64,000 bases of DNA from Candidatus Kaiserbacteria bacterium RIFCSPHIGHO2_01_FULL_46_22 (lineage in GTDB: Bacteria > Patescibacteriota > Minisyncoccia > Phycocordibacterales > UBA918), in NCBI GenBank assembly GCA_001779595.1, contig MFKO01000002.1:22279-86278 (forward strand), in the 5' to 3' direction. The notes beneath the pieces are model-generated. The model was not told the origin of the DNA, made no database searches, and worked only from the letters and a program-made list of their open reading frames with translations. Positions 9,167 through 43,196 of this stretch are shown here, one piece after another. Each line of letters opens with the position of its first letter. Positions within the stretch are counted from its first letter, which is position 1. The position numbers and the translations under genes are program-made.

Positions 9167-9178
9167 TTGATCAGTGTC

Positions 9179-9207
9179 TTGACAAGATTGCAATAACGGG
9201 TTAATTT
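9179..9207 (+). promoter_or_regulatory. Sigma-70-like promoter (TTGACA-17 nt-TAATTT) preceding the GC-rich cassette
   Basis: TTGACA at 9179-9184, 17-nt spacer, TAATTT at 9202-9207; a perfect 8-bp hairpin (ctttggcg-acag-cgccaaag) follows at 9214-9237 in the 5' UTR. Confidence 0.45.
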
Positions 9208-9253
9208 ATTGTCACTTTGGCGACAGGCGCCAAAGAAGATGAGGAGTTCTTCA

Positions 9254-9655
9254 ATGACCAAGACCACGCTGCCCCTGTATGCACTTTTGATCTCGACAGT
9301 ATCGTCCGTCGATGGTTCGCCCAAGTCGCTCGAGGACGCGAAGTTCGCGGCGAAACTCGCCGCCAACGGCGAAATCCCGGCCGACAAGCTGCCCGAAGTT
9401 GCGAGTGCCATCGACCAGCAGCTCGGCATGATCGCCGGCGGTGACGGCATCCATGTATGCGAAGCTCACCAGATGCTGATGCAGGCACGCGCGAGCATCA
9501 GCGGCCAGGTCGATTTCTACAAGCAGCAGCTCGATATGTTCGACGATGACAACCAGCTTTCGCTCGGTATCGACAACAAGCTCGGCGCGGCCGCCAGCAT
9601 CATGCCGACCGCCGGCATGATCCGCGATGGCGCGGTGCATCATCCCGCCGAATGA
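9254..9655 (+). CDS. Orphan 133-aa protein encoded in a GC-rich island
   Basis: GAGGAG, 7-nt spacer, ATG; strongly GC-rich third positions unlike the flanks; no family recognised. Confidence 0.4.
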   Translation: MTKTTLPLYALLISTVSSVDGSPKSLEDAKFAAKLAANGEIPADKLPEVASAIDQQLGMIAGGDGIHVCEAHQMLMQARASISGQVDFYKQQLDMFDDDNQLSLGIDNKLGAAASIMPTAGMIRDGAVHHPAE

Positions 9656-9688
9656 TCGGTCCTTGACAGCATTCGCTGTCGCATAACA

Positions 9689-9728
9689 GAGCCTTTCCCG
9701 ATACGTTATCGGGAAAGGCTCACTTTTT
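9689..9728 (+). terminator. Rho-independent terminator
   Basis: gagcctttcccgata-cgt-tatcgggaaaggctc perfect 15-bp stem followed by TTTTT. Confidence 0.8.
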
Positions 9729-9763
9729 AAGTCATACACAAACAAAGGGAGGAGGTGTTTAAA

Positions 9764-9910
9764 ATGTCGCATCCCCGTAATAAGTCCGATGGCGAACCCA
9801 ATCGGGCGAAACGGCGAAAGAAGGAGTTGAAGGAAAAGCAGGGCGGAATCCTGCAGCCGCGTGGCGCACCCGTTGGCCCAGGCAAGAAAAGAAGGGTCAG
9901 GAAGCCTTGA
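9764..9910 (+). CDS. Orphan 48-aa Lys/Arg-rich small protein (MSHPRNKSDGEPNRAKRRKKELKEKQGGILQPRGAPVGPGKKRRVRKP)
   Basis: AAAGGGAGGAGG Shine-Dalgarno 7 nt upstream of the ATG; 17 of 48 residues are K/R; flanked by exact-stem terminators on both sides; not in the ORF track because it is under 60 aa. Confidence 0.35.
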   Translation: MSHPRNKSDGEPNRAKRRKKELKEKQGGILQPRGAPVGPGKKRRVRKP

Positions 9911-9916
9911 TCCACA

Positions 9917-9952
9917 GGCCCGATCGCGATAGCGATCGGGCCATATTTTTTT
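9917..9952. terminator. Rho-independent terminator (bidirectional position)
   Basis: ggcccgatcgc-gata-gcgatcgggcc perfect stem followed by TTTTTTT. Confidence 0.8.
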
Positions 9953-10100
9953 AATCTCTTTTTTCCTTGTTAAACATTTCTCCAATAATCCCAAACATCA
10001 CACCAAGGAAAATGAAGCTCACTACATTATCTGTGAGAATGCCCATTACAGCTCCCACAAATGTACCTATAGCTATTACTGATCCCCAAGGAAGATTCAT
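9951..10100 (-). CDS. Possible small single-TM protein
   Basis: MNLPWGSVIAIGTFVGAVMGILTDNVVSFIFLGVMFGIIGEMF; weak RBS. Confidence 0.25.
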   Translation of the reverse strand: MNLPWGSVIAIGTFVGAVMGILTDNVVSFIFLGVMFGIIGEMFNKEKRD

Positions 10101-10185
10101 ATAAAAAACTGTACGCCTTTTTAGGTGAAGGAATAATGTAGGTATTTCCAATTTGCATCCATTATTTTTGCGTTATTATTGAATT

Positions 10186-10584
10186 ATGGAAAAAATACCG
10201 GCTGATCTTAAAAAAGCGCTTGCATCAGCACAGAAAGCAAAAACTATCTGGGACGGTCTGACACCTATTGCCCGCCGAGACTTCATTAGCTGGATAGAAA
10301 GTGCCAAGCAAGTAGAAACACGTAAGCGTCGCGTTGACAGCGTTCCTTCGAGACTTATATCAGGTAAACGTCGTCCGTGTTGTTACGCGCTGGTGCCGAT
10401 GAATCTTTATAAAGCAATTGGACTTAGCGCAAAAGCGAAAACTACTTGGAAAGCGCTTACTCCGGACGAGCGCAGAAATTTCAATGATTTTGTAAATGGA
10501 GTAAAGAATAAAGATCTGCAGAGTGAACGAATAGCAAAGGTTATTTATATACTGGCCTCCGGCAAGAAAAGTCTAGTGAAGTAA
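10186..10584 (+). CDS. YdeI/OmpD-associated family protein (DUF1905-associated)
   Basis: Duplicated KAKTxW..LTP..RR.F..W motif characteristic of the YdeI-like family. Confidence 0.45.
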   Translation: MEKIPADLKKALASAQKAKTIWDGLTPIARRDFISWIESAKQVETRKRRVDSVPSRLISGKRRPCCYALVPMNLYKAIGLSAKAKTTWKALTPDERRNFNDFVNGVKNKDLQSERIAKVIYILASGKKSLVK

Positions 10585-10666
10585 TGATGAAGATGGTAAT
10601 AGAGATCAGTAGGGGTCGTCATCACTATTGTAGGGAGATAGATTACTAACTAAATAACACGATACT

Positions 10667-10900
10667 ATGTTAAAGAATACGCCAGCCGTATTCTTGGCGG
10701 CGATTGTGGCTGTAATCGTAATAACCAGTCCATTAGGCATCAACTATGCCTCGGCCCGTGCTGTCTCCGACCAAGATATCGACTCCCAAGAGGTTGTTGT
10801 TCGAACCGCATCAAGAGAGATGATTGAAGAGTACACACGGTTGTTGCTCTATATGATCATTTTTAAGTTGGAGACCAGAATAGCGGACCAGCAAAAGTAG
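10667..10900 (+). CDS. Hypothetical small protein with N-terminal TM
   Basis: ORF only. Confidence 0.25.
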   Translation: MLKNTPAVFLAAIVAVIVITSPLGINYASARAVSDQDIDSQEVVVRTASREMIEEYTRLLLYMIIFKLETRIADQQK

Positions 10901-10977
10901 AGATTTGAATTGCAACGTTCACAATCTCCATACGCAAATGATGTTTGTCTAAATACAGTATAGACATCTGTGTAAGC

Positions 10978-11009
10978 AAAAAGCTCGCCTTGCATTGGCG
11001 AGCTTTTTG
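10978..11009 (+). terminator. Rho-independent terminator
   Basis: aaagctcgcc-ttgcattg-gcgagcttt hairpin followed by a T-run. Confidence 0.7.
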
Positions 11010-11085
11010 TATCATAGCCCACTATTTATGGGTAAGATACGCATATAATATTGAAAAGCTGACAAAGAGGTAATATTGTTTCAAT

Positions 11086-11415
11086 ATGACAAACACTAAA
11101 ATTATAGTAGCAACCACTGAAAAGATAGCCGGCAGAGAAGTGACAGAGATTTTAGGACTGGTCCGCGGCAACACCATAAGGGCAAGGCATATTGGCAGTG
11201 ATATCGGAGCGAGCCTGAAGAGTCTGGTCGGAGGAGAAATAAAAGGTTATGTAGTGGCAATGACTGACGCCCGCGAAGAGGCATTGTCCAGAATGCTTGA
11301 TGAAGCATCTTTGCTAGGCGCGGATGCGGTAATCGGAATGCGTTTCACTACTTCACAAATAATGACTGGTGCCGCGGAAGTTCTAGCGTACGGCACAGCG
11401 GTAAAATTAAATTAG
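11086..11415 (+). CDS. YbjQ/UPF0145 (DUF74) family protein
   Basis: 109 aa; ...VRGNTIRARHIGSDIGASLKSLVGGEI..YVVAMTDAREEALSRM...GADAVIGMRF... matches the UPF0145 pattern. Confidence 0.6.
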   Translation: MTNTKIIVATTEKIAGREVTEILGLVRGNTIRARHIGSDIGASLKSLVGGEIKGYVVAMTDAREEALSRMLDEASLLGADAVIGMRFTTSQIMTGAAEVLAYGTAVKLN

Positions 11416-11427
11416 CTTCTGACTAAG

Positions 11428-11787
11428 ATGAGTAATGTGTTCCGGACGGATAAAATGGTGGTACGTTATGACGACTATAAGAAAACCGCTGCTTTTCTAA
11501 GCAGGTGTGTGCTTTGTAATAAATCAGCACTCCAGGATTTTAAGTATTGGCGGATTACTAAAAACGACTTTCCTTACGATCGTATCGCAAAGGTGCACGA
11601 TATGATAATCCCGCTTCGTCACACGAATGAGGCCGGTTTGACTGCCGATGAGACAGCCGAATTGTTGATGATCAAACAGCAGTATTTGCAGGATTATGAA
11701 TACATAATAGAAGCAGCTGAAACACGTCGTTCAATACCGGAACATTTTCACTTACATCTTATACAGAGCAAGACTGAATACACCTAA
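11428..11787 (+). CDS. Hypothetical protein, possibly HIT-like
   Basis: C-terminal EHFHLHLIQ resembles an HxHxHxx histidine triad; N-terminal CxxC. Confidence 0.35.
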   Translation: MSNVFRTDKMVVRYDDYKKTAAFLSRCVLCNKSALQDFKYWRITKNDFPYDRIAKVHDMIIPLRHTNEAGLTADETAELLMIKQQYLQDYEYIIEAAETRRSIPEHFHLHLIQSKTEYT

Positions 11788-11816
11788 ACTTCATAAAGTA
11801 TTACTAGAATAATAAG

Positions 11817-12314
11817 GTGTATAATTTTGGTATGAAACCTACGATCATCATTTTCTTGGCGATGTCGTTGTTAGTGGGTGCAGGTTTTTTAACTTGGAGG
11901 AAAGATACAGCGTCTCTGAATGATGATGCGACAAAGAACATTCAGGCAGAAGATCAAAACCAGAGCTTGGAGTTGGAAGACAATGAGTGGGTGTGGCTCT
12001 ATACCGAACTACAGAATGGACAAAAGGTGACTGCGCCAGAAGGAAACGAATTTGTAATTTCTTTTGATTCAAAAGCCGGACGCATTGTCAGTCGTACAGA
12101 CTGCAATAGCTTGTCAGGTATTTTTGCCAAGGATGGAGAGGTGTTAAGTATGGGTGAATTCGTCTCTACTAAAATGTATTGCGAAGGATCTATGGAAGGC
12201 GTGTACGTCGATCATTTAGCGCTAGTTAACTCATTTGTTATTGAAGGCAAGACACTTCGCCTTATCCAGAATCGTGATTACGGCGTAATGGTTTTTGAGC
12301 TAGTCAGCTCATAA
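11817..12314 (+). CDS. META/HslJ-like (DUF306) domain protein (paralogue of 742..1665)
   Basis: N-terminal TM; ...VISFDSKAGRIVSRTDCNSLSGIFAKDGEVLSMGEFVSTKMYCEG... Confidence 0.5.
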   Translation: MYNFGMKPTIIIFLAMSLLVGAGFLTWRKDTASLNDDATKNIQAEDQNQSLELEDNEWVWLYTELQNGQKVTAPEGNEFVISFDSKAGRIVSRTDCNSLSGIFAKDGEVLSMGEFVSTKMYCEGSMEGVYVDHLALVNSFVIEGKTLRLIQNRDYGVMVFELVSS

Positions 12315-12324
12315 TGTAATTAGT

Positions 12325-12612
12325 ATGGATTGGATATATCAAAGTAATTTGAACGGAGGACCGGAATGGTTTGGTCTTGGTTTGTGGCCAGCCTTAACCA
12401 TTCTGCCATTGATTCTCTGGGGCTTAGGATGGAAAGGTTGGGCTATGTGGTTGGCAGCTCGGCGGGGAGAAACACCGTGGTTTATCGCCTTGCTCATCAT
12501 CAACACAGCTGGTCTTTTGGAAATCTTCTACATTTTTGTGATTGCCAAAAGAAAAGATACGGAAGAAGAAGCATTGAAAGTAGTGCCAGAGGAACAGTCT
12601 AATAAATCATAA
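12325..12612 (+). CDS. Hypothetical small membrane protein
   Basis: Two hydrophobic helices. Confidence 0.3.
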   Translation: MDWIYQSNLNGGPEWFGLGLWPALTILPLILWGLGWKGWAMWLAARRGETPWFIALLIINTAGLLEIFYIFVIAKRKDTEEEALKVVPEEQSNKS

Positions 12613-12616
12613 ATCT

Positions 12617-13195
12617 ATGAAAATTTTTGCTTTCATCGCGATAATAGTTGCGGCTATCGGTGTGTGGTATATCTGGGCGGCGATGCTAAATGGCGGTAGT
12701 AGTTTAGTCGATATAAATCCTGATCCATCACCGCAGGATATACGTTCTTTCGAGGATTGTGAGAAGGCTGGTTATCCGGTGATGGAAAGTTATCCTCGTC
12801 AGTGTGCCGTGCCAGACGGTCGCACTTATACAGAAGAAATTGTGGTTGAGGCCACTTATGAAAATGCCGATGAGGATATGATTGTAGTTGACCTACCTAA
12901 TCCTGGCGCAGTGGTAGGGAAGGAATTTAAAGTAATTGGTGAGGCGCGCGGCAATTGGTTTTTTGAAGCGTCGTTTCCTGTAGAAGTTGTGGCGGATAAC
13001 GGAACAGTGTTAGCGCGTACTTATGCCACAGCCGTCGGGGACTGGATGACAACTGAATTTGTAGATTTTACCTCTGATATCAAAGTTCCTGATTCATATA
13101 TTGGCCCAGCTACTTTGATATTGCGAAAAGATAATCCTTCAGGTTTGCCAGAAAATGACGCGTCGGTTTCTTTCCCGATTGTGATTGAGTACTAA
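12617..13195 (+). CDS. Gmad2 immunoglobulin-like domain protein, membrane-anchored
   Basis: ...GKEFKVIGEARGNWFFEASFPVEVVADNGTVLARTYATAVGDWMTTEFVDF... pattern of the Gmad2 domain. Confidence 0.45.
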   Translation: MKIFAFIAIIVAAIGVWYIWAAMLNGGSSLVDINPDPSPQDIRSFEDCEKAGYPVMESYPRQCAVPDGRTYTEEIVVEATYENADEDMIVVDLPNPGAVVGKEFKVIGEARGNWFFEASFPVEVVADNGTVLARTYATAVGDWMTTEFVDFTSDIKVPDSYIGPATLILRKDNPSGLPENDASVSFPIVIEY

Positions 13196-13210
13196 TAGAG
13201 AGGTATTAAG

Positions 13211-13507
13211 GTGAAAAATTTATCGTTCAAAGCAAAGGTATGGCTGTGGCCTGGGGAATCAGCTAGTTGGCATTTCACATCAGTGCCTAAGGAAGAAAGT
13301 GTTAAGTTGCGTGAGAAGTATAAAGGGCTACACCGCGGCTGGAACTCTATTAAAGTACAAGCAAAGGTTGGAAAAACAGTATGGGAAACATCCATCTTTT
13401 TCGACAGTAAGAGTGCGCAGTATATGTTGCCGCTCAAAGCTTCTGTCCGTAAAGCGGAAGGGATATTTCACGGTGATCCAATTCAGGTTAAACTAAAGAT
13501 TCTATAA
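13211..13507 (+). CDS. DUF1905 domain protein
   Basis: 98 aa; ...VWLWPGESASWHFTSVP... beta-rich small domain; GTG start likely. Confidence 0.45.
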   Translation: MKNLSFKAKVWLWPGESASWHFTSVPKEESVKLREKYKGLHRGWNSIKVQAKVGKTVWETSIFFDSKSAQYMLPLKASVRKAEGIFHGDPIQVKLKIL

Positions 13508-13508
13508 A

Positions 13509-14710: not shown

Positions 14711-14790
14711 CCTCGGTTTAATCGTGATAGGGTGTTTATAGAAGGACAGACTCGCTGTACTTCGCAAAAACCTGTACAAGGAGAATAGAA

Positions 14791-15144
14791 ATGTTACCTG
14801 ATTGGACAGGAAAGGCTGTGGCAGGTGCCGCAGTGGGCGCCGTAGCTGCTATGATCGTCGGCTTCGCGTGGGGTGGTTGGATGACCAGTGGGTCGGCTGC
14901 GACGATGGCGAAAGCCGAATCGCAGAAGGCAGTAGTTGCTGCCCTTACTCCGATCTGCGTCAAGCAGGCGGAAGTTGATCCGGAACGCACGGTGAAGCTC
15001 GCGGCGTTGGGCGCGTTATCTTCGTACCAGCGGAGCGACGAGCTCGTGAAGACCGGCTGGGCAACAATGCCTGGTCACGACAAGCCGGCCGACAGGGCCG
15101 TCATCTCAGCTTGTCTCAACGAACTGGCCAAGAGTCTGAAGTAG
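14791..15144 (+). CDS. Orphan 117-aa protein in GC-rich island; N-terminal Gly/Ala-rich TM helix
   Basis: AAGGAG, 7-nt spacer, ATG; GC-rich; GKAVAGAAVGAVAAMIVGFAWGGW helix; no family recognised. Confidence 0.4.
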   Translation: MLPDWTGKAVAGAAVGAVAAMIVGFAWGGWMTSGSAATMAKAESQKAVVAALTPICVKQAEVDPERTVKLAALGALSSYQRSDELVKTGWATMPGHDKPADRAVISACLNELAKSLK

Positions 15145-15163
15145 TTCAGACGAGAACACAATA

Positions 15164-15203
15164 GTGCGCCGTTCGGTTATACCGAACGGCGCATATTTTA
15201 TTT
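15164..15203. terminator. Rho-independent terminator (bidirectional position)
   Basis: gcgccgttcgg-ttata-ccgaacggcgc perfect stem followed by a T-run. Confidence 0.8.
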
Positions 15204-15935: not shown

Positions 15936-15977
15936 ATAACAAGGCGAATCCTACCATATTATGCTAGGATTTGGCGG

Positions 15978-16721: not shown

Positions 16722-16739
16722 GTTATAATATTTGTCATT

Positions 16740-18743: not shown

Positions 18744-18764
18744 TTTTACTCGTATCCATTATTT

Positions 18765-21101: not shown

Positions 21102-21130
21102 TATCCCAGATTGATTTAGTATTGTAAATG

Positions 21131-21139
21131 TGTTATAAT
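21131..21139 (+). promoter_or_regulatory. Extended -10 promoter element (TGtTATAAT)
   Basis: TG at 21131-21132, TATAAT at 21134-21139, ~17 nt upstream of AGGAGG. Confidence 0.45.
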
Positions 21140-21167
21140 ACAGAAAGTCTGCACGCAGGAGGAAAAA

Positions 21168-21668
21168 TTGGATTGGATCAATGTACGTCCACTGAGCAAG
21201 CCTGAAAAATTGGCTGACGTCGCAATGGCTCCGTTGATGCGAGTCATTTCTGGAGCACCCAGTGAAGTTCCCCAAAGTACGCATCGTTGGAACAATGCAA
21301 AGCTAGATGCTGAGATTTGTTCCAGTTTTCGTGATGATTGTATGGTCGAGATCGCTGGTGACCCGGCCGCCAAGAGAATGTGGTACGGCTCACTCCCTCT
21401 TTTTCATTTACCCATTCTGGGTGGATGGAAAAGATATGTTGTACTTCAGTCAGAAAGACCACACATCAAATGGTATGTGGGCTGGATAACACAGGAAGTT
21501 TGCGGCTACTCGAGAATACCGAGTCTAGGAGCAACGCGATCATTGATTGGACCGGGGAATGTGAAATTCTTTGGTCTGAACGCCGCTGGTCTCCAGATAC
21601 CAATCCGCATGGTCGGTGAGGGAAAGATCGGCGACGGTGGGGAGTGGCGGAATTTGCCGCTACGCTGA
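21168..21668 (+). CDS. Orphan 166-aa ORF (TTG start) of uncertain coding status
   Basis: AGGAGG then a 5-nt spacer then TTG; Trp/Cys-rich sequence without recognisable domain; region carries overlapping 60-85-aa ORFs on both strands. Confidence 0.3.
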   Translation: MDWINVRPLSKPEKLADVAMAPLMRVISGAPSEVPQSTHRWNNAKLDAEICSSFRDDCMVEIAGDPAAKRMWYGSLPLFHLPILGGWKRYVVLQSERPHIKWYVGWITQEVCGYSRIPSLGATRSLIGPGNVKFFGLNAAGLQIPIRMVGEGKIGDGGEWRNLPLR

Positions 21669-21673
21669 GGTTG

Positions 21674-21702
21674 GGGCGCGAGAAAATACTCGCGCCCTTT
21701 TA
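21674..21702 (+). terminator. Rho-independent terminator
   Basis: gggcgcgag-aaaata-ctcgcgccc perfect stem followed by TTTT. Confidence 0.75.
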
Positions 21703-26087: not shown

Positions 26088-26212
26088 GAAGGACTGAGTG
26101 AATTGGTATCAGGTTGTTAAAGTAGCATTGACTTTAGTCATTTTTTGATTTAGTGTTCGTTACAGACCATTCCATGAGGAGTGGCAAATGCACCTAGAAA
26201 AGGAGAATATCA

Positions 26213-26593
26213 ATGGGGATACTTATTAGGAGGTCAGATGGACTTCGGATTCGTGTGACCGGCACCGGCGTGGATGGTGACCCGATCGGTGAGGTTATCG
26301 ACGATCAGGACAGCATCGTCACGGTCCGTCGCCTCAACTTGGCCGAAAGGGACGCCTACTACCGCGCCCAGAAAAGCGGGAAGATAGAAGTTGCGGTTAT
26401 CAAACACCACAACGGCGTCATCAAGACTCAGCGCTACTGGAGCCCGAGCAGCGGGAAACGTTCCGTTGCTCCGCAGAGATCTTCTCTGCGGAGCAACAAA
26501 TCCTCGACCACTTACAGGGTCGTCGAGATCGAAAGCCAGTTTTCTGTGCGGATCGGCACCAAGCACTTGGACTTTCCGAAGGGTCTCTATTGA
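26213..26593 (+). CDS. Orphan 126-aa protein in GC-rich island
   Basis: AGGAG, 7-nt spacer, ATG; GC-rich; contains a 15-bp-arm inverted repeat; no family recognised. Confidence 0.4.
   Translation: MGILIRRSDGLRIRVTGTGVDGDPIGEVIDDQDSIVTVRRLNLAERDAYYRAQKSGKIEVAVIKHHNGVIKTQRYWSPSSGKRSVAPQRSSLRSNKSSTTYRVVEIESQFSVRIGTKHLDFPKGLY
26465..26497 (+). repeat. Perfect inverted repeat inside the orphan ORF (15-bp arms, 3-nt spacer)
   Basis: gttgctccgcagaga-tct-tctctgcggagcaac. Confidence 0.8.
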
Positions 26594-26653
26594 TCTGATT
26601 CCAAGCTTACTGAGGTAAGCGCAAAGCCATTCGGTTTTTGCTACAATTATTGT

Positions 26654-28593: not shown

Positions 28594-28602
28594 GGTTCAA
28601 AA

Positions 28603-28636
28603 AAGCCGCCGCGTCTGACGCGGCGGCTTTTTATTT
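28603..28636. terminator. Rho-independent terminator between convergent pilin and RNase J genes
   Basis: agccgccgcgtc-tga-cgcggcggct followed by TTTTT. Confidence 0.8.
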
Positions 28637-28644
28637 GTTTAAAT

Positions 28645-30672
28645 TTAGATACCAATCAGTACTGGAATCACCATCGGAGTCTTGTTGGTCTTTTGCATTA
28701 GGAAGCCAGAAACAGTGTTGGAAAGTTCATCCTTCACATAATCTAGATCAAGAGGATGCATTTTCTCAGTATGCTTCTCAACAGTTTTTTTGATGAGAAT
28801 GCGGGCTTCTGATAGTAGCTGTTGGTTCTCACGCAAGTAAACGAAGCCACGAGAAATAATGTCAGGCGACTTACGCAGCTTTCCGTTCTTGGTATTGACG
28901 GTCGCGATGATAACGAACATACCGTCTTCAGCGAGTGTCTGGCGGTCACGCAGCACCACTTCCTGCTTGGTGCCCACTGTGAAGCCATCTACCATCACAA
29001 GTTCGGTAGGGGCCTTTGCTTTTTGTACGGTCATCTCACCATTCTTGAAGTCGATTAGGAAGCCGTTGTCTGGTACCACAATGTTTTCGCGAGGGAAACC
29101 GTTTTCGATTGCCGTATACATATGGCTCTTCAAGTGGTAATGGTGGCCGTGTACTGGGATCAAGAATTTCGGACGAATCGCCTGACGTACCCAATTTAGT
29201 TCACCAGCATTACCGTGGCCAGAGGAGTGCACTGCCGCGCTGCGGTAGTTGATAACCTTCACATTCTTGCGGTAGATATTGTCCTTTAATTTCTGAACAG
29301 CAATCTCGTTACCGGGAATCACCGATGAAGACAACACAATAGTGTCGCGTTCAGTTAGTGTGATCTGCTTATGCTTATCGGTTGCGATTCGCATCAGAGC
29401 AGCAAATTCCTCACCCTGCGCACCAGTGGAAAGGATAACGATGCGATCTGATGGGTAGTCGCCCATATCACCAGCATTGATAAATATTTTATCGTCAACT
29501 TCCAATAGTTTTGCTGTCCGAGCGATGTCTATGTTGGTTTTGATACTGCGACCTTCCAGTACGACTTTTTTGCCGTATTTCTCGCAGGATTTTATGATCG
29601 AAGTTAGTCGCTCAAATTGTGAAGCAAACGTACCAATGATCATACGGCCGGTACTGTTTTTGATGATGGCATCAAGATTTGAAAGAACCAAACCTTCCGA
29701 TGCAGAAAATCCCTCACGGTCAGCATTGGTCGAGTCACAAATCAAAACTAGGTTGTTGTTTTTGCCCATCTTCTCCCAGCTCTCACGTTCATCCAAATCC
29801 ACTTCACCATCTTCATGAGTAAGGCGGATGTCACCAGTGATTACAATATCGCCCTGGTTGGTCTCCACAGATACTCCCATCGCGTCAGGAATTGAGTGAG
29901 TGACAGGGAAGGTTTTGATTCTCATCTTGCCAACAGTGAAAGAATCACCCTCTTTGACAACGTGCATATCAACAGGGTCTAGATGAGGAAATTCTTCTTG
30001 ACGCTTCTTGATCATTAGTGAGGTCAAGTACTGGGTGTAAATTGGCGGGTTACCAATACGTTCCATTACAAATGGAATACCACCGATGTGATCGAGGTGT
30101 CCGTGAGTGACTACTAGAGCTCGGATCTTATGCTTTCGTTCCTCGACATACTGAGTATTAGGCAAGATGTAGTTGATACCTGGAGCGTTAGATTCTTCGG
30201 ATACGAATTGAAAACCAATGTCGAAAATAACCATGTCGTCCTTTGTTTCAACCACTGTCATGTTACGACCGATTTCTTCAACGCCGCTCATCGGAATCAC
30301 ACGTACAGTCTCGTCATCAGTAATTTCTGGCAGGCGAGGAGATTTCTCGTCAGTGACAGAAATACGGTGTTGAAGAGCCGGCGCTTTGTTGGAGCGGCGT
30401 TTGTTCGCAAAGCGAGAAGGACGGCGAGAGCCACCGCGTCGCTCGCCGGCACTGTCATTGGTGCGGCCAGCAGGGCGGGGTGCGGCGCTTTTTGTTTCTG
30501 TGCTGACACCAGTAGCACTACCTGTGCCTGTACCAGCTACATTGTTGCGGGAGGGCGCACCACGATAGTTACTGCGTGAGCCAAAACGGGTTCGGCTTCC
30601 GCCGCTACCACCAAATGGACGTCGGCGACTACCGCCTGTGGCCTTTGGTCCATTATTTTGATTATTATCCAT
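28645..30672 (-). CDS. rnj: Ribonuclease J (beta-CASP metallo-beta-lactamase) with ~110-aa Arg/Gly/Ser-rich N-terminal extension
   Basis: VTHGHLDHIGGIP HxHxDH motif and beta-CASP region; N-terminus MDNNQNNGPKATGGSRRRPFGGSGGSRTRFGSRSNYRGAPSRN... Confidence 0.8.
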   Translation of the reverse strand: MDNNQNNGPKATGGSRRRPFGGSGGSRTRFGSRSNYRGAPSRNNVAGTGTGSATGVSTETKSAAPRPAGRTNDSAGERRGGSRRPSRFANKRRSNKAPALQHRISVTDEKSPRLPEITDDETVRVIPMSGVEEIGRNMTVVETKDDMVIFDIGFQFVSEESNAPGINYILPNTQYVEERKHKIRALVVTHGHLDHIGGIPFVMERIGNPPIYTQYLTSLMIKKRQEEFPHLDPVDMHVVKEGDSFTVGKMRIKTFPVTHSIPDAMGVSVETNQGDIVITGDIRLTHEDGEVDLDERESWEKMGKNNNLVLICDSTNADREGFSASEGLVLSNLDAIIKNSTGRMIIGTFASQFERLTSIIKSCEKYGKKVVLEGRSIKTNIDIARTAKLLEVDDKIFINAGDMGDYPSDRIVILSTGAQGEEFAALMRIATDKHKQITLTERDTIVLSSSVIPGNEIAVQKLKDNIYRKNVKVINYRSAAVHSSGHGNAGELNWVRQAIRPKFLIPVHGHHYHLKSHMYTAIENGFPRENIVVPDNGFLIDFKNGEMTVQKAKAPTELVMVDGFTVGTKQEVVLRDRQTLAEDGMFVIIATVNTKNGKLRKSPDIISRGFVYLRENQQLLSEARILIKKTVEKHTEKMHPLDLDYVKDELSNTVSGFLMQKTNKTPMVIPVLIGI

Positions 30673-35102: not shown

Positions 35103-35146
35103 AACGGGGCGAGACTCATCTGAGTCCGCCCCGTTTGCGTTTATTC
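35103..35146. terminator. Rho-independent terminator (bidirectional position)
   Basis: acggggcgagactca-tc-tgagtccgccccgt stem with one bulge, followed by a T-rich run. Confidence 0.75.
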
Positions 35147-35587
35147 TCGCGCGATCCTTGCGATTGTCTCGGCAAGAACCTTTGAGACGACCGGAGTTCG
35201 TATGAACTCAACTCTTGCCTTGTTGAAGTCAAAGTTGAACAATGTCTCCCTTTCGGGGGTCATAAAGAGAATCGGTCCATCCTTCCAATTTGTGTTTCGT
35301 AGATGTTGGATGTCCCTTATGCCGACCTGCCGACTGGCGATCCAGTCGTAAACGACAACCAATTTAAACTCGCCGAACGCGGTGGTTTCGGTGAGTTCGA
35401 TCAGTTTCTCCGCTACTTCTCCGGAGGGACTGAAAACAACCCTACAACCTACATTGGACAGGTTGGTTTGTGCCTCGTGCGATTCTCCAATGCATAAGAC
35501 TTTGACCATTTGCTCAAACATCGCGCATTCTCCTTGTTGCGAGGTGACAATCTGGCCGTATCGTACAATAACTTGCATTTGTGTCAA
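35141..35587 (-). CDS. Possible receiver (REC)-like domain protein, likely pseudo-receiver
   Basis: KVLCIGES...KLVVVYDW...ILFMTP... follows the REC-fold spacing but with Glu in place of the first acidic pair. Confidence 0.35.
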   Translation of the reverse strand: MTQMQVIVRYGQIVTSQQGECAMFEQMVKVLCIGESHEAQTNLSNVGCRVVFSPSGEVAEKLIELTETTAFGEFKLVVVYDWIASRQVGIRDIQHLRNTNWKDGPILFMTPERETLFNFDFNKARVEFIRTPVVSKVLAETIARIARE

Positions 35588-35634
35588 AAATGCTAAAATG
35601 AAGGTATTAAAATAATTTCCTAATAATTCTCTCT

Positions 35635-36222: not shown

Positions 36223-36228
36223 TCAGTT

Positions 36229-36654: not shown

Positions 36655-36657
36655 AAT

Positions 36658-37557: not shown

Positions 37558-37714
37558 GATTGGTGAAAATCGCGATCTGCGTCGTTGAGCTACGGAAAAT
37601 AACACTCACTGAACAGTCCTAGTTCACCTCGTGTTATTTTCCTTACTCGCCTTGCATCTCATCGATTTTCAACAATCTCAAACATAAGATGCCTTTGTGT
37701 TATAAAGTAAGTAT

Positions 37715-38068: not shown

Positions 38069-38079
38069 GAAAATAAAGA

Positions 38080-38112
38080 AAACCGCCGCATCAGATGCGG
38101 CGGTTTTCTTCG
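38080..38112. terminator. Rho-independent terminator
   Basis: aaccgccgcatc-aga-tgcggcggtt followed by TTCTT. Confidence 0.75.
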
Positions 38113-38123
38113 CTGTAATTGAG

Positions 38124-38510: not shown

Positions 38511-38692
38511 ACGTTTGAAATTAGTTTTTAATATCCGTCACTTATATTTTAATCCTTTCATCACACGAATTATGCTTTCGCAAGTTGGAAAGTGTGCATA
38601 AGTCACGAGTAATTTCATGCACTCTTCATGCTTGTTGCTCATTTAGTGCATGCTAATCTGATAACAGGAAAGAAAATTCAAGGGAGGAGTAG

Positions 38693-39004
38693 ATGATTCA
38701 TGTCTACGTACAAATAATCGATGTGCCTCCCGGCTTTGCTCCGCCGGAAATCAGGGAGCAGTGGAAGAAGATTGTTCTTCCTGTAATTACTGAGAGTGAA
38801 ATGGCGACTAATCCTCCCAATACGAGATACGGGGTGGACGCCGCAAATGTGGGAGGGTTTACAGTGTCTAGACCCAGGGCAGTGGCCGCTTTAACAAAGC
38901 GTGGCAGAAGCGAAGCCGCTGGATTTTGGACAGGATTCCCATTTGGTCCTTATTTGCAGTTCAGGAAAGATGTCTGTCGGGTGATAAGAGTGGTCAGCCG
39001 ATGA
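38693..39004 (+). CDS. Orphan 103-aa protein next to tRNA-Ser
   Basis: GGGAGGAG Shine-Dalgarno immediately upstream; own terminator; no family recognised. Confidence 0.3.
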   Translation: MIHVYVQIIDVPPGFAPPEIREQWKKIVLPVITESEMATNPPNTRYGVDAANVGGFTVSRPRAVAALTKRGRSEAAGFWTGFPFGPYLQFRKDVCRVIRVVSR

Positions 39005-39022
39005 AAGGTCTGCACAAAGTTA

Positions 39023-39056
39023 AAACCGCCGGCAAGCTTACCGGCGGTTTATGTTT
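39023..39056 (+). terminator. Rho-independent terminator
   Basis: aaccgccgg-caagctta-ccggcggtt followed by TTATGTTT. Confidence 0.65.
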
Positions 39057-39057
39057 G

Positions 39058-39072
39058 GCGGAGGGTGAGGGA
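39058..39072 (-). repeat. 15-nt direct copy of the tRNA-Ser 3' end (gcggagggtgaggga)
   Basis: Identical to 39216..39230. Confidence 0.6.
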
Positions 39073-39146
39073 ACTTTTCTCTTACAGAGCAGTACACCTT
39101 TTGGCTAAAATTTTCTTAAAATTAATTTTAGCTCAAAAGGTTTTCA

Positions 39147-39170
39147 AATCCCTCCCGTCTCACTCAAAAT
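39147..39170 (+). repeat. Degenerate inverted fragment resembling the tRNA-Ser T-arm/acceptor (gttttcaaatccctcccgtctcac)
   Basis: 12/12 match to TTCAAATCCCTC of the tRNA in the opposite orientation. Confidence 0.45.
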
Positions 39171-39216
39171 ATAATCACACAAAACTCCAGATGTTCGTTT
39201 TGTGTTCATTATTTTG

Positions 39217-39303
39217 CGGAGGGTGAGGGATTTGAACCCTCGAAGGAGTTTCCCCCTTACCGCCTTTCCAAGGCGGCGCACTAGACCACTATGCGAACCC
39301 TCC
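39217..39303 (-). tRNA. tRNA-Ser (anticodon GGA), type II with long variable arm
   Basis: Reverse complement folds as a cloverleaf: acceptor GGAGGGT/ACCCTCC, anticodon stem CCGCC/GGCGG with loop TTGGAAA, long variable arm, T-arm GGGTTCAAATCCC; CCA not encoded. Confidence 0.8.
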
Positions 39304-39394
39304 TAATGTTGCGGTCGTTATGATAGCGCAAAGTAGTTCCTTTACCAACCTTGAGAAGGGTAGATTCGTTTGTACTCAATGTATAATTTACCTA

Positions 39395-39961
39395 ATGAAA
39401 CGTGATGATTGGATGCTCCTTACTCTGACCTTCTTAACTGGTGCAGCGATTGGAATGTATATGTATGTTGCGGTCTGGAAGCCGGTTTATTTTCCTGAAG
39501 ATTTAGGAAATGAAGAAGCAGAGGCTTCTGATTGGAGTATCGTCGGTGAAAGACGGCAAGGTGGAGCCACCGAAGCTTCTTTCCGACTTCTTTCGGATGG
39601 TAGTTATAGTTATATAGCCATTGACGATCTCTCTGGTGAGCCAGAAGCGCGCAAAGAAGGATCAATCAAGAAAACGCTGGTTAAGGAATTGATGGTGTCG
39701 GAAGATGAGATTGCTTCTTACGAAGAAGAAACAGAGTGTCTGGCATCAGATAAAGTTGAATATGAGTATCGTTTTACAATCGACAACTACACTTATTTGC
39801 TCGATACTTGCAACACTGAACTTGGACACGACACCGAGTTGTCTCTCTTATTGAAAAAAGCGTGGCATCAAATGGAAGGTAGTGTTGACGGAACTGCTAC
39901 GCCGTCAGAATGGCTAACGAACTGGCTTAACGAAAGGATTGGAGCAAATAAAAATAATTGA
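39395..39961 (+). CDS. Hypothetical membrane-anchored protein
   Basis: N-terminal TM (MLLTLTFLTGAAIGMYMYVAVW); ATG at 39395 preferred. Confidence 0.35.
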   Translation: MKRDDWMLLTLTFLTGAAIGMYMYVAVWKPVYFPEDLGNEEAEASDWSIVGERRQGGATEASFRLLSDGSYSYIAIDDLSGEPEARKEGSIKKTLVKELMVSEDEIASYEEETECLASDKVEYEYRFTIDNYTYLLDTCNTELGHDTELSLLLKKAWHQMEGSVDGTATPSEWLTNWLNERIGANKNN

Positions 39962-39971
39962 AAGTAAGTAC

Positions 39972-40004
39972 AAAGCCGGCCACGTCTAACGTGGCCGGCT
40001 TTTG
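39972..40004 (+). terminator. Rho-independent terminator
   Basis: agccggccacg-tcta-acgtggccggct followed by TTTT. Confidence 0.8.
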
Positions 40005-40104
40005 AAATACAAAATATATCTGTGCGTAACAATAACCGAGGCGATCAGGATAATGCAGATCAATCGCCTTTCCGTAACGCAGAGTTAATCAATATTTCAT
40101 CTCT

Positions 40105-40758
40105 ATGAACTTAAGATCAGTATTAATCCCAGTGGCAGCGTTTGCTGTTACTGTGACTGGCGCTAGCGCCTTTAATAGCGAGCTCTTGCAAAAAGCAGGA
40201 CTCACAGAGGATCAAATCAGTGCTTTCGAGGAAGCCAAAGAACTTCGTGAAGCAGGTGATTTAGATGCGGCCCGAGATGTGCTCGAAGAAGCTGGAGTTG
40301 ATGAGGGTGTAATGGAGCGACTTCGCGACACGATGCACGGCCACCATAAAGCACTCAGGGCTGCGATCGAGGACAATGATTACGAAGCTTTCCGTGAAGC
40401 AATCGAAGGCTCACCTCTTGCTGACATCATTAATACTGAGGAAGAATTCGAACGTTTCGTTGAGGCTCACAATCTAATTAAGAATGGTGACAAAGAGTCT
40501 GCCAAAGAAATTTTTGATGATCTAGGAATCGAAGGTCCAGGTAAGCACATCAAAATGTTCAACGGTGACAAGGAACCTCCATTCTTTGAACAGTTAACAG
40601 ATGAACAAAAAGAAGAGCTTAAAGCAGCTTTTGAGTCACGTGATCACGACAAAGTGAAGGAACTACTCGCTTCGTATGGCATAGAATTGCCGGAGAAATC
40701 AGAAGGGAAAGGCTTTGGTTTTGGTCGGGGAATGCATAAAGAAATGAATAACGATTAG
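40105..40758 (+). CDS. Secreted acidic alpha-helical protein (hypothetical)
   Basis: Signal peptide MNLRSVLIPVAAFAVTVTGASA; E/D-rich. Confidence 0.4.
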   Translation: MNLRSVLIPVAAFAVTVTGASAFNSELLQKAGLTEDQISAFEEAKELREAGDLDAARDVLEEAGVDEGVMERLRDTMHGHHKALRAAIEDNDYEAFREAIEGSPLADIINTEEEFERFVEAHNLIKNGDKESAKEIFDDLGIEGPGKHIKMFNGDKEPPFFEQLTDEQKEELKAAFESRDHDKVKELLASYGIELPEKSEGKGFGFGRGMHKEMNND

Positions 40759-40928
40759 GCAACCGATCGACTTAATAAAAAGGCCGGCAACCTGCGGGGT
40801 GGAGACTTCTGCGACTCCATCTCGCGGGCTGCCGGCTTTTTTGTAATTTAGTGGACAATACGATGATTTTAATGTAGGATTTCGTGCACTTACAGCTGTG
40901 CCCGAGGGCACTTTTTCTTTTTTTGATT

Positions 40929-42710
40929 ATGGAAATACGCAATATCGCAATCATCGCTCACGTGGACCACGGTAAGACAACCCTTACTGATGCTTTAATG
41001 GAGCAGACCGGCGCCCGTGCCGAAGGACAGTCAATGGACTCAAACGCTCTTGAAAAGGAACGCGGCATTACTATTTATGCCAAAAACACCTCCATTGAGT
41101 ACAAGGGTACCAAGATCAACATCGTTGACACTCCAGGCCACGCCGACTTCGGCAGTGAAGTGGAGCGTGTTTTGCGTTCGATCGACTCTGTTTTGCTCGT
41201 AGTGGACGCTCAGGAAGGTCCGATGCCACAGACACGTTTCGTACTTAAAAAGTCGCTTGAGCTTGGTCTTAAGCCGATTGTGGTCATTAATAAGATCGAC
41301 AAGCCTGCCGCTAACCCACATCACGCTGAGGAGCAGGTTCTCGAACTCTTCCTAGAACTTGGCGCAAATGATGAACAGTCCAATTTCACTACCGTATTTG
41401 CTATCGGACGTGAGGGTATCGCTAAGCGGTCTCTTGAAGACGATTCAAAGGACCTTTCACCACTCCTAGACGTCATCTTGGAGCAGGTACCAGCAGCTAA
41501 GGCCTACGTAGAGGGCGAGCCGCTAGCAGCTCAGGTCTTCAATCTTGGTTACGACAACTTCCTCGGCCGTTTGGCAGTAGCGCGTGTTTACAGCGGAAAG
41601 TTGAGCAAGGGACAGACTTTGTTTGTTGCTGCGGAAGGAAAGGAAAAATGGAGTAGCAAGGTAGTTAAAATTTCTACCTTCAAAGGCACTAGTCAGGTGG
41701 AATCCGATACCGTTTACGCTGGTGATATCGCATTGATCGCTGGTTTTTCTAAAATCGACATCGGTGAGACATTGGTGGACAACGAAGCGACTGAACCGCT
41801 AACTGCCATTCACGTTGATGAGCCGACTATCGGCCTCAGCTTTATGCCAAATGCTTCGCCTTTCGCTGGGCGAGAAGGTAAGTTTGTTACTGGTCGCCAG
41901 ATCAGAGAGCGTCTTGAAAAGGAACTCGAAATTAACGTGGGTCTTAAAGTAGACTTTTCAAAGGGAGACTTTTTTGAAGTATACGGACGTGGAGAAATGC
42001 ACATCTCTATCTTGTTGGAAAACATGCGTCGAGAAGGTTACGAAATGGCCGTGTCTCAGCCGCAAGTAATCATTAAGGAGGAAAACGGACAAAAAACTGA
42101 ACCGTTTGAAGAAGTAGTTGCTGATATTCCGTCTGAATTCCAGGGACCGGTAATCGAAAAGTTATCGAACCGTGGTTTCGTGATGCAGAATATGATCACT
42201 CACGAAAATCAGGTTCGTTTGGTCTTCGTTGGTCCTACACGAGGTCTTCTTGGTTACAAAGGTCAGTTCATTATCGACACCAGAGGTGAAGGAATTTTGG
42301 CTTCACAATTCGTTGGCTTCCGTCCATACGCTGGTGAGATCAAGAAGCGTCAGGCTGGCAGTATGGTTTCAATGACGGCAGGTAAAGCACTTGGATTTTC
42401 ACTTTGGAATTTGCAAGATCGCGGACAGCTCTACATCAACCCAGCCACAGAAGTATATGAGGGTATGGTGATCGGAAATACTTCTAAGGGTGAAGAAATG
42501 ATGGTAAACCCGACTAAGGGTAAGCAGCTCACCAACATGCGCTCTTCGGGAGCTGATGAGGCAATCAACCTTACTCCACCACGAATCCTTAGTATTGAAA
42601 TCGGTTTGGAAACAATGGCTGACGATGAGTATTTGGAAGTAACACCACAAAGTGTACGTTTGCGTAAAGCTCTTTTGAAAGAGAGTGAGCGTAGGAAGGG
42701 TGGTAAATAA
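40929..42710 (+). CDS. typA: Translational GTPase TypA/BipA
   Basis: [23 protein letters not shown]1 motif, [13 protein letters not shown]. Confidence 0.9.
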
Positions 42711-42722
42711 TATTGGGTATTA

Positions 42723-42757
42723 AAACAGCCGGCCCCGAAGGGGCCGGCTGTTTTAAT
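42723..42757 (+). terminator. Rho-independent terminator
   Basis: acagccggcccc-gaa-ggggccggctgt followed by TTTT. Confidence 0.85.
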
Positions 42758-42859
42758 ACCCATACACAACGGCCACATTGACACTTTTTAATACTGTAAT
42801 ACTCTGGTTGGTACCAGGCAATAACGCACTGGTAACGCCAACCAAAAAGGAGTTTTTCG

Positions 42860-43003
42860 ATGACCTGGAAAACGCATTTTTCGGCCAACTTCAGCCCCCA
42901 TATCGGCGACACCACTTCTTTGGCCCGCGCGCAGAATTCGCACAGCGTCGCTATCGGCACCGGCGTGTCGGACGGTTCGGTCAAGGACATCTCCAAGAAC
43001 TGA
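42860..43003 (+). CDS. Orphan 47-aa ORF in GC-rich island (MTWKTHFSANFSPHIGDTTSLARAQNSHSVAIGTGVSDGSVKDISKN)
   Basis: AAGGAG, 7-nt spacer, ATG; GC-rich; followed by a second SD-like site (AAAGGGGA, 7 nt, ATG at 43040) and a 21-codon ORF (43040..43105). Confidence 0.3.
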   Translation: MTWKTHFSANFSPHIGDTTSLARAQNSHSVAIGTGVSDGSVKDISKN

Positions 43004-43196
43004 TTCAAGGCCAGGGTCTCCCAGAAAGGGGAAACGCACATGTCTATCCGCAAGGGTATGGTGAGACGATATTCGTCTCAAGGTGATCAGGTTCTTTCTG
43101 TCTGAAATTTTTCAGACTCGAGCACAAAAGGGCGATCGTGAGTTATCTCCGAACGCCCTTTATTATTTTTTTATACCCTCACTTCGGCGAGGTTTT

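Follow-up and report, generated by a model that had tools for sequence, protein, structure and literature searches.

How do single small genes of deviating composition come to stand in the gaps of a compact bacterial genome, and how are they expressed there? The question is raised by a stretch of 64,000 nt from Candidatus Kaiserbacteria bacterium RIFCSPHIGHO2_01_FULL_46_22 (contig MFKO01000002.1, positions 22,279 to 86,278), hereafter called the window. A sequence-only reading had picked out four GC-rich islands in it that share one architecture, namely a Shine–Dalgarno sequence (SD), a spacer of exactly 7 nt, an ATG start codon and, in three of the four, an exact-stem terminator. Bacteria of the candidate phyla radiation (CPR) have tiny genomes and depend on other cells, and their ways of gaining and expressing genes are little understood. 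We conclude that the islands are a natural part of this genome and that they probably, though by no means certainly, represent horizontally acquired small protein-coding genes with a foreign composition, high in GC at third codon positions (GC3), placed at permissive intergenic sites.

The compositional contrast was confirmed using several measures. GC content in 300-nt windows averaged 0.455 (sd 0.038) and peaked at 0.63 both at 9.1–9.9 kb and at 14.7–15.3 kb (z 4.7 each) and at 0.58 at 26.2–26.6 kb (z 3.3). The fourth island is too short to bring any 300-nt window to 0.54, and its open reading frame (ORF) I4a has a GC content of 0.58. The four islands, which like all their features described here lie on the plus strand, hold five ORFs: I1a (9254–9655; 133 aa, GC 0.61, GC3 0.79), I1b (9764–9910; 48 aa, GC3 0.63), I2 (14791–15144; 117 aa, GC 0.60, GC3 0.67), I3 (26213–26593; 126 aa, GC 0.56, GC3 0.69) and I4a (42860–43003; 47 aa, GC3 0.79). 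Two of the starts proposed earlier were off by one and have been corrected here. The GC3 of these ORFs (0.63–0.79) compares with 0.43 (sd 0.054, maximum 0.57) for 65 native genes taken from public gene calls, which served as the reference set throughout. In a leave-one-out likelihood of synonymous codon usage the five ORFs took the top five of 72 ranks, with I4a scoring highest, and GC within them showed a strong three-base periodicity, with GC3 well above GC at second positions. The islands of the sequence-only reading therefore stand, and they do cluster by composition. Two further GC peaks reflect amino acid composition rather than codon choice: the one at 30.2–30.7 kb is the N-terminus of RNase J, and the one at 50.9–51.4 kb is an Ala/Thr-rich linker of a CAP-domain gene. 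The RNase J N-terminal extension (30330–30672, minus strand) comprises about 110 residues, is rich in Arg, Gly and Ser, and reaches a GC content of 0.61.

The gene content of the window is typical of CPR/Paceibacterota genomes, and the proteins flanking the islands were found with exactly the same sequence on public aquifer metagenome contigs. The longest matching contig is ENA ERZ28563803 ("ANAN16-1_SAMN03842431 ... scaffold_31", 396,679 bp); others are JGI 3300025323 and 3300002502 and ENA ERZ27254767, ERZ4903137 and ERZ27254754, and the Logan assemblies of SRR2090153, SRR3989344 and SRR3989338 match as well. BLASTN comparison showed 99.9–100% identity between these contigs and the window over islands and junctions, and all islands were 100% identical in at least six independent assemblies and samples. 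Because of these identical independent assemblies and because diverged orthologues occur in other species, we conclude that the islands belong to the natural genome of an uncultivated bacterium. A chimeric assembly and engineered inserts, both named as options by the sequence-only reading, were rejected on the same evidence. In favor of a joining of reads from a high-GC organism into a Kaiserbacteria scaffold, contig ends in several independent assemblies fall inside I1b (window positions 9824, 9847 and 9983) and inside I2 (about 14830/14837 and 15015). However, the same junctions are crossed at 100% identity in other independent assemblies (ENA, JGI and Logan, from different runs), another species has diverged orthologues between the same flanks, and Kaiserbacteria sequence lies on both sides of every island, which makes a chimera or contamination very improbable. 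The contig ends suggest strain-level variation or graph branching at the cassettes. Engineering is more improbable still: the signals do look textbook-like (TTGACA, AAGGAG with a 7-nt spacer, perfect hairpins), but the source is an environmental aquifer metagenome of an uncultivated lineage, orthologues at 50–81% identity occur in other wild populations, and native genes end in perfect hairpin terminators too.

We then compared the islands with the corresponding loci of relatives. Among named genomes, the nearest is that of Candidatus Kaiserbacteria bacterium RIFOXYB1_FULL_46_14 (L024), whose RlmI-like methyltransferase shares 89% amino acid identity with that of the window at a nucleotide identity of about 70–78%. 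A sister species represented by contig L187 is nearer to the window than L024, as judged from the Gmad2 (85% versus 64%) and VTT-domain (81% versus 69%) proteins. Relative to L024, Island 2 (14714–15194) is an insert of about 481 bp at a point where an MGMT-like gene and a methyltransferase gene converge, between their stop codons; the L024 site is clean and empty, with only a few bases between the two stops. The AT-rich leader of I2 stops precisely at the ATG of the ORF, where GC climbs from about 0.4 to 0.65 within about 20 nt. The ORF is preceded by AAGGAG (14778–14783) with the 7-nt spacer AATAGAA and followed by a predicted terminator with a perfect 13-bp stem, a 3-nt loop and a T-rich tail (15165–15193). 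In L187, an orthologue with 81% identity follows the same MGMT-like gene, and its leader is about 85% identical to that of I2; the Nei–Gojobori method, which was used for all such estimates, gave proportions of nonsynonymous (pN) and synonymous (pS) differences of 0.13 and 0.60 and a dN/dS of about 0.12.

The I2 protein has an N-terminal transmembrane helix (maximum hydropathy 2.02) and a soluble domain with two conserved Cys residues; a structure model with a predicted local distance difference test score (pLDDT) of 45 was too poor for use. Searches showed that 103 plasmids, nearly all of them of Rhizobiales or Rhodobacterales, carry relatives of I2, with 43–52% identity over 74–98% of the length. 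These relatives form an alphaproteobacterial family of conserved hypothetical proteins of about 115 aa with the motifs GFxWGGW and VxAxxPxCV, and the similarity to I2 is full-length, including the transmembrane segment and both Cys residues; on this similarity we assign I2 to the alphaproteobacterial family. In the three plasmids examined, the relative comes second in an operon of two overlapping genes and has its SD within the first of them (about 100 aa); its GC content is 0.59–0.62 with a GC3 of 0.58–0.70. Unlike these operon-borne relatives, I2 stands alone in the window, with an ORF of the same composition as the plasmid genes.

Island 4 (42758–43191) is likewise an insert, of about 434 bp, between the terminator of the BipA gene and the end of a pseudouridine synthase gene. 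In L104, a metagenome contig with a GroEL 94% identical to that of the window, the insert is absent without trace and the site is clean and empty. A promoter-like site (42778–42805; TTGACA, a 16-nt spacer and TACTCT) is followed by a leader hairpin, TACCAG...CTGGTA, and by AAGGAG (42847–42852) with the 7-nt spacer TTTTTCG. A terminator-like hairpin with 12-nt arms that are 92% complementary, followed by a T-run, lies at 43127–43161. Homology searches found no homologues of I4a. The 20-aa ORF proposed earlier as a separate gene (I4b, 43040–43105, 20–21 aa) found no independent support, and it continues the frame of I4a, from which one TGA separates it; I4a may thus be a truncated remnant and Island 4 a decaying gene of 82 codons. 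Exactly at the left edge of the island, the palindrome of the BipA terminator is longer on both arms than in L104 (TGGGTAT ... ATACCCA; window 42705–42770 compared with L104 18575–18625), and the greater part of the insert lies between the two copies of a near-repeat, TTTTAATACCC / TTTTTATACCC. The palindrome extension and the near-repeat may be an insertion footprint.

Island 3 (26088–26630) fills the gap between a DUF8173 gene and a leaderless HAD gene. It has a promoter-like site (26128–26156; TTGACT, a 17-nt spacer and TAGTGT) and the SD AAGGAG (26200–26205) with the 7-nt spacer AATATCA. Only three relatives of the protein were found, and these were its orthologues. One orthologue (P0015, about 61% identity), from the same sample as the sister species, is likewise flanked by DUF8173 and HAD genes; comparison with the I3 orthologue gave a pN of 0.24, a pS of 0.71 and a dN/dS of about 0.13. 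A variant of I3 that is 99% identical (P0013) was also recorded. The outgroups L109 and L110 have no gap at this site, with 6–24 bp separating the two flanking genes, and contig L105 has 220 bp of non-coding sequence there. In L104 the site (2975–3260) is occupied by an unrelated SD-led ORF of 60 aa with a GC3 of 0.69, preceded by TTGACA-17-TACAAT, a 5' hairpin and "AAAAGGAGAAT-cccg-ATG". Since the two genes abut in L109 and L110, the empty site is ancestral and has been filled at least twice. The I3 ORF also contains a perfect palindrome (26465–26497; 15-3-15) that encodes APQRSSLRS. Its 12-bp core stem is identical at 24 of 24 positions in the L197 orthologue of the sister species, in a gene that is about 70% identical with a pS of 0.71, which points to nucleotide-level selection on an RNA or DNA structure.

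Island 1 (9167–9950), between a VTT-domain gene and a Gly-zipper gene, is a variable intergenic locus with a GC content of up to 0.63 and carries two GC-rich cassettes, I1a and I1b; positions 9167–10666 of the window correspond to about 150 bp in L024. An orthologue of I1a (P0004, 50% identity; pN 0.30, pS 0.56) follows the same VTT-domain gene in a sister Kaiserbacteria population (L187–L190). The I1a protein is predicted to form a four-helix bundle (AlphaFold2 pLDDT about 90 for residues 8–99) with a disordered C-terminal tail, and no fold match at E<0.05 was obtained when this model was compared with the PDB. A profile search among 1.84e9 cluster representatives detected only nine members of the I1a family. 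Genomic context was examined for five of the nine. Two members, P0006 and P0009 (L192 and L198), belong to other Paceibacterota genomes of about 44–47% GC and lie at a different locus, between DsbB and MgtE genes, where they form GC-rich islands with a GC3 of 0.75–0.76 among native genes without SDs. P0006 and P0009 are only 32% identical to each other, and the N-terminal parts of the neighboring DsbB proteins are, by eye, far more similar. Across the examined members, in at least five genomes and at two unrelated loci, GC3 ranged from 0.67 to 0.85.

The signals around I1a recur in its family. The promoter-like site (9179–9207) consists of TTGACA (9179–9184), a 17-nt spacer and TAATTT (9202–9207), and the arrangement TTGACA-N17-TAATGT/TAGTAT was kept in all five members examined. 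The leader begins with a stem-loop (9215–9235; CTTTGGCG / ACAGG / CGCCAAAG), for which RNAfold gave a leader folding energy of −14.7 kcal/mol. A hairpin occurs at the equivalent position in L187, L192, L196 and L198, and since the stem sequence differs in every member, the pairing has been kept by compensatory changes. The SD GAGGAG (9241–9246) is followed by the 7-nt spacer TTCTTCA and ATG, and "GAGGAGTTCTTCR-ATG" recurs unchanged in L192 and almost unchanged in L187 and L196. P0006 and P0009 have TTGACA-N17-TA(A/G)T(G/A)T, a 5' hairpin, and "GAGGAGTTCTTCG-ATG" or AAGGAG with 8 nt. What is conserved in the I1a family, and seems to be portable, is thus the whole transcription unit. The I1a terminator (9689–9721; perfect 15-bp stem, 3-nt loop) is conserved in L187; as a TTGACA lies at 9663–9668, this hairpin could possibly double as the 5' stem-loop of an I1b transcript. 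I1b encodes a very basic product with 17 Lys and Arg residues, preceded by the SD GGGAGGAGG (9747–9755) 8 nt before its ATG and followed by a predicted terminator with a perfect 11-bp stem, a 4-nt loop and a T7 run (9917–9942). No pipeline called I1b as a gene and no orthologue was found in L187; we infer that it is coding from its SD, its GC3 and its codon likelihood rank. At the L187 locus, two other SD-led genes (1147–1506 and 1636–2391, minus strand) replace I1b and OmdA downstream of the I1a orthologue: one for a secreted protein of 119 aa with a GC3 of 0.71 and a DUF4189 match below the Pfam cutoff, the other for a protein of 251 aa.

The islands were thus found to be insertions relative to some relatives and shared with others. 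Clean empty sites exist for Island 2 in L024 and for Island 4 in L104, the Island 3 genes abut in L109 and L110, and the Island 3 site of L104 has been refilled. Orthologues of I1a, I2 and I3 are present at the same loci in the closer sister species, with the SD and its 7-nt spacing kept and a GC3 of 0.59–0.68, and they are absent from the L024/L104 lineage. It follows that I1a, I2 and I3 were gained after the split from L024/L104 and before the last speciation, and were then inherited vertically. pN was below pS for all three, indicating purifying selection on the proteins, which evolve faster than their neighbors; the island dN was 3–8 times that of neighboring genes, with dS saturated and the ratios correspondingly rough. 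Horizontally acquired micro-cassettes, as suggested by the sequence-only reading, are accordingly supported by the insertions and by the alphaproteobacterial relatives of I2 with matching GC, whereas a recent gain is not. That reading had named orthologues at the same loci in relatives as grounds for its refutation; for I1a, I2 and I3 they occur in the closest sister species, but not in the next species out.

A common origin of the islands, also suggested there, found no support. All-versus-all BLASTP among the island proteins gave nothing below E=0.2, so they do not descend from one gene, and the islands share no sequence of 14 nt or more; their common k-mers are those of the SD region (AAGGAGAAT) and one 13-mer in I3 and I4a. 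What they share is composition and expression architecture. The island proteins had no hits in Pfam, PHROG or PADLOC (E≤0.01 for the latter two), and the suggested anti-defence role found no support. As a conjecture, proteins that are this small, evolve this fast and occur this patchily could serve in accessory functions, for example as envelope or interaction factors.

We next examined the expression signals. An SD core of at least 5 nt located 3–13 nt upstream was present at all five island ORFs and at 3 of 65 native starts (Fisher p=4.6e-6); the sequence-only reading had described native starts as more varied, and this contrast was even understated. GGAG, exactly 7 nt and ATG occur at I1a, I2, I3 and I4a, and the spacer is 8 nt at I1b, so that the constant spacing claimed earlier applies to four of the five ORFs. 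Over 16 SD-led cassettes from this genome and its relatives, the spacing was 7 nt in 12 and 8 nt in 4. A spacing of 7–8 nt is about the usual optimum. The typical cassette has a −35 box, a 16–17-nt spacer, a weak −10 box and a leader of 32–53 nt that usually starts with a hairpin and continues through an A-rich stretch to the SD; no clear −35 box is seen at I2. The window contains fewer TTGACA copies than expected (24 versus 46±7), and 6 of the 24 are upstream of SD-led ORFs. An exact TTGACA was found 45–100 nt upstream of I1a, I1b and I4a, and also of three units of native composition, namely X7, a Pribosyltran (phosphoribosyltransferase) gene and a 38-aa ORF. The native genes presented a different picture. 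TATAAT-like hexamers occurred 6–9 nt before the start codon in 18 of 65, about five times the density elsewhere upstream (for example, at the starts 3460, 11832, 20550, 21731, 26654, 39395, 43959 and 51896). Among 19 such leaderless-type promoters, one had a −35 box matching at least 4 of 6 positions and eight had an extended −10 "TG". Since −10 hexamers at this distance from ATG are a signature of leaderless mRNA, their positions imply that the native genes are largely leaderless and read from a −10 box only, about a third having a TATAAT-like box near the ATG; other native genes are started within operons and have no SD. A literature search on leaderless and SD usage in CPR bacteria found nothing specific.

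Terminators did not separate the two groups. Perfect-stem hairpins follow I1a, I1b and I2, the Island 4 hairpin has one mismatch, and Island 3 has no terminator, so the exact-stem ending claimed for the islands holds for part of them. At least eight native genes also end in perfect hairpins, with stems of 10–23 bp and mostly 3-nt loops (2765–2789, 4910–4946, 10977–11009, 28600–28632, 38076–38110, 39972–40002, 42714–42762 and 53161–53188). Many of these palindromes are flanked by an A-run and a T-run and could be bidirectional terminators. The exact-stem terminator was therefore rejected as a hallmark of the islands.

These signals suggest how a foreign ORF might be expressed in such a genome. 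Each island would be a self-contained monocistronic unit with a sigma-70-type promoter, a leader, an SD, an ORF and usually an intrinsic terminator. A foreign ORF landing in a gap could not use the leaderless mode unless a −10 box happened to lie exactly 6–7 nt before its ATG, whereas a promoter-leader-SD module would work at any position; the shared architecture can then be read as a functional requirement and not as pedigree. The host evidently can read this module, since genes of native composition use it. The promoters and SDs of the islands are presumably in use, judging from their motifs, and by analogy with Firmicutes the 5' hairpins probably shield the leaders from RNase J, which is encoded at 28645–30672. 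Both the direction and the vehicle of transfer we infer.

Several observations weigh against horizontal acquisition as the explanation of the islands. Homology searches gave no donor for I1a, I3, I1b or I4a, nor did the islands reveal a transfer vehicle, an integrase, an attachment site or a target duplication. The AT-rich promoter and leader of I2 cannot stem from the translationally coupled operon context of its alphaproteobacterial relatives, so these signals were supplied by or evolved in the recipient. GC3 is high in both sister lineages despite saturated synonymous sites, which amelioration explains partly; the GC3 of I1a and I3 is lower by 0.10–0.12 in the sister species, which hints at slow decay. 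The same promoter and SD grammar serves the three units of native composition named above, and grammar alone is therefore no mark of foreignness. Finally, a crude survey of 49 related loci with a home-made ORF caller gave no significant association of SD-led ORFs with GC3 outliers (odds ratio 2.2, p=0.17), but it was compromised by antisense and spurious ORFs that displaced real genes.

Three other explanations were weighed. The islands might be native genes whose high GC3 and SD/TTGACA-dependent expression have been kept by selection, for instance on mRNA stability or translation rate by way of rare codons, and are not relics of transfer. Such selection would account for a GC3 still at 0.59–0.79 in both sister species despite a pS of 0.56–0.71, for the GC richness of the I1a family in every genome examined, for the use of the same grammar by genes of native composition, and for the internal hairpin of I3 conserved at the nucleotide level. 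However, the clean empty sites in related species and outgroups, the broad alphaproteobacterial I2 family of the same GC, and the lower GC3 of I1a and I3 in the sister, as expected under decay, all argue against it, and GroEL, GroES and BipA, which are expected to be highly expressed, have a GC3 of only 0.44–0.47. We consider a native origin unlikely. A far smaller chance is left for the idea that the GC-rich patches are structured non-coding RNA genes and not ORFs. GC-rich islands in AT-richer genomes often are RNA genes, and conserved hairpins are present in the leaders and in I3, but a scan with Rfam gathering thresholds and ARAGORN found only tRNA-Ser, GC follows a three-base periodicity, orthologues retain the ORFs intact, with a pN lower than pS, and I1a and I2 have protein homologues.

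The third explanation retains acquisition and differs in the source: a CPR-specific gene pool in which self-contained GC-rich units move among Paceibacterota and land repeatedly at hot spots, carried, for example, by phage, by plasmid, or by natural transformation with flank-guided replacement. We regard it as possible but not favored. The I1a-type unit is kept in at least five genomes at two unrelated loci with a GC3 of 0.67–0.85; cassettes diverge beyond their flanks, as with P0006 and P0009 beside the more similar DsbB and with I1a at 50% identity between flanks at 80–90%; and the Island 3 site was filled at least twice by unrelated cassettes. Transfer in groundwater Patescibacteria, according to a published study, was mostly from Patescibacteria to Patescibacteria (PMC12455944). 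On the other side, no relatives of the island proteins were found in the viral contigs scanned, no PHROG hits were obtained, neither a recombinase nor a repeat signature was seen at the borders, the donor indicated by I2 lies outside CPR, and genomic context was examined for five of the nine I1a-family members. An extended form of this idea, which we put forward tentatively, is that CPR genomes harbor two expression dialects, one of leaderless residents with −10-only promoters and one of a mobile pool of GC-rich cassettes of fixed design (TTGACA at −35, a 5' hairpin, AAGGAG, 7 nt and ATG) that would pass between CPR genomes and keep refilling hot spots. It is conceivable, at a similarly low level of confidence, that the cassettes are chromosomal "morons" of CPR with some ORFs derived from Proteobacteria, possibly from hosts. 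A potential source of GC-rich genes was also noted among relatives: L105 (ERZ761601 NODE-15), with a GroEL 87% identical to that of the window, has 53.5% GC overall and a GC3 of about 0.65–0.79, showing that higher-GC Kaiserbacteria exist that could be donors. Horizontal acquisition of small GC-rich genes at permissive sites, whatever their source, remains the reading that we prefer.

Beyond the islands, the window contains further SD-led units. X7 (35141–35587, minus strand) consists of TTGACA (35582–35587), a 16-nt spacer, TACGAT, AAGGAG, an 8-nt spacer and an ORF of 126 aa (35141–35521); its GC3 is 0.57, its codon likelihood is intermediate, and it is conserved in L104 at 50% amino acid identity. 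The sequence-only reading had also noted two orphan cassettes of nearer-background GC. Both are indeed SD-led, but they do not join the islands by composition, as each has a GC3 of 0.47 and their codon likelihood, like that of the phosphoribosyltransferase gene, is within the native range. One of them, O5 (21102–21697, plus strand), encodes 166 aa and has homologues at 41–46% identity. In L024, O5 is missing except for about 25 nt at the 3' end of the ORF and the terminator, and this remnant suggests a deletion in L024 of a gene that is probably ancestral. The other, O6 (38693–39050, plus strand), is an orphan ORF of 103 aa with a terminator, adjoining tRNA-Ser; homology searches found no homologues, and its site in L104 (14470–14845) holds a leaderless DUF305 gene. 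The hydrophobic 38-aa ORF (7354–7470, minus strand; MRNLILVALGASLVISAVVF...), which is uncalled or variably called, lies in the gap 7249–7576; its ATG is preceded by AGGAGG at 6 nt and by an exact TTGACA at 46 nt (whole unit 7354–7521, minus strand).

Two native loci were noted in addition. An ORF of 1609 aa (45695–50524), for which no Pfam family is on record, lies downstream of a gene for an extracytoplasmic function (ECF)-type sigma factor (43959–44531) and a gene for 317 aa. At 51577–53155, an S24 peptidase gene (LexA/UmuD-like) is paired with a Y-family polymerase gene; GGAGGAG lies 12 nt before the ATG of the peptidase gene, which is one of the three native SD-like starts.

At this locus, small genes have come singly into a compact and mostly leaderless genome, each as a complete SD-dependent unit, and have outlasted a speciation event. 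Should this hold more widely, an SD combined with outlying GC3 would be a simple screen for acquired genes in CPR genomes, and could point to donors, possibly hosts, as I2 does to Alphaproteobacteria.

How do the islands compare with known systems? Phage morons are defined as additional genes that deviate in GC and carry a promoter and a terminator each (Cumby et al. 2012, PMC3594210). The islands resemble them in being, typically, a single extra gene of differing GC between conserved neighbors, patchy among relatives, with what appear, at the level of consensus motifs, to be a promoter and a terminator of their own. They differ in that their neighbors are housekeeping genes (BipA, pseudouridine synthase, MGMT-like, methyltransferases and HAD hydrolase) and in that they do not lie in a phage or prophage and lack PHROG hits and viral-contig relatives. 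In groundwater Patescibacteria, individually transferred genes and small islands, mostly old, have been described, for which the donors were mostly other Patescibacteria and in some cases Pseudomonadota (PMC12455944). Habitat, phylum and gene-by-gene acquisition are the same here. The available part of that report gives no account of cassette anatomy or of a contrast with a leaderless host, and I1b, I3 and I4a differ from the transfers it describes in having no identifiable donor or family beyond close relatives.

Integron cassettes are similar in being small, each made up of one ORF with its ribosome-binding site and a hairpin at the 3' end, and in being interchangeable at one site. However, they are promoterless, are expressed from Pc and depend on attC and IntI/attI, whereas each island has a promoter-like site, the 3' hairpins of the islands are short GC-rich stems of 11–15 bp, perfect and followed by T-runs, as in terminators, and their sites are dispersed. 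No integrase-type Pfam family was found among the called genes of the window, in which no dedicated search with an attC model was made. Unlike classical genomic islands, the inserts measure 0.43–0.8 kb and lack convincing flanking repeats, and only O6 adjoins a tRNA gene. The lack of shared sequences of 14 nt or more and of convincing terminal repeats or target duplications separates them from insertion sequences and miniature inverted-repeat transposable elements; terminal inverted repeats are limited to one weak pair of 19 nt, 79% complementary, around Island 1. A type I toxin–antitoxin system is a poor match too, since I1b and I4a are not hydrophobic (antisense RNA was not looked for).

In bacteria with RNase J, 5' stabilizers that combine a stem-loop with a strong SD are known from aprE and ermC of Bacillus subtilis and from the STAB-SD of cryIIIA of Bacillus thuringiensis. 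The islands would resemble these, so far as their sequence goes, in having a stem-loop near the 5' end with a strong SD close by, in a genome that encodes RNase J. Set beside all of these systems, horizontal transfer itself is ordinary; what is notable at this locus is the contrast between two expression grammars, the portable unit of the I1a type and the re-use of insertion sites.

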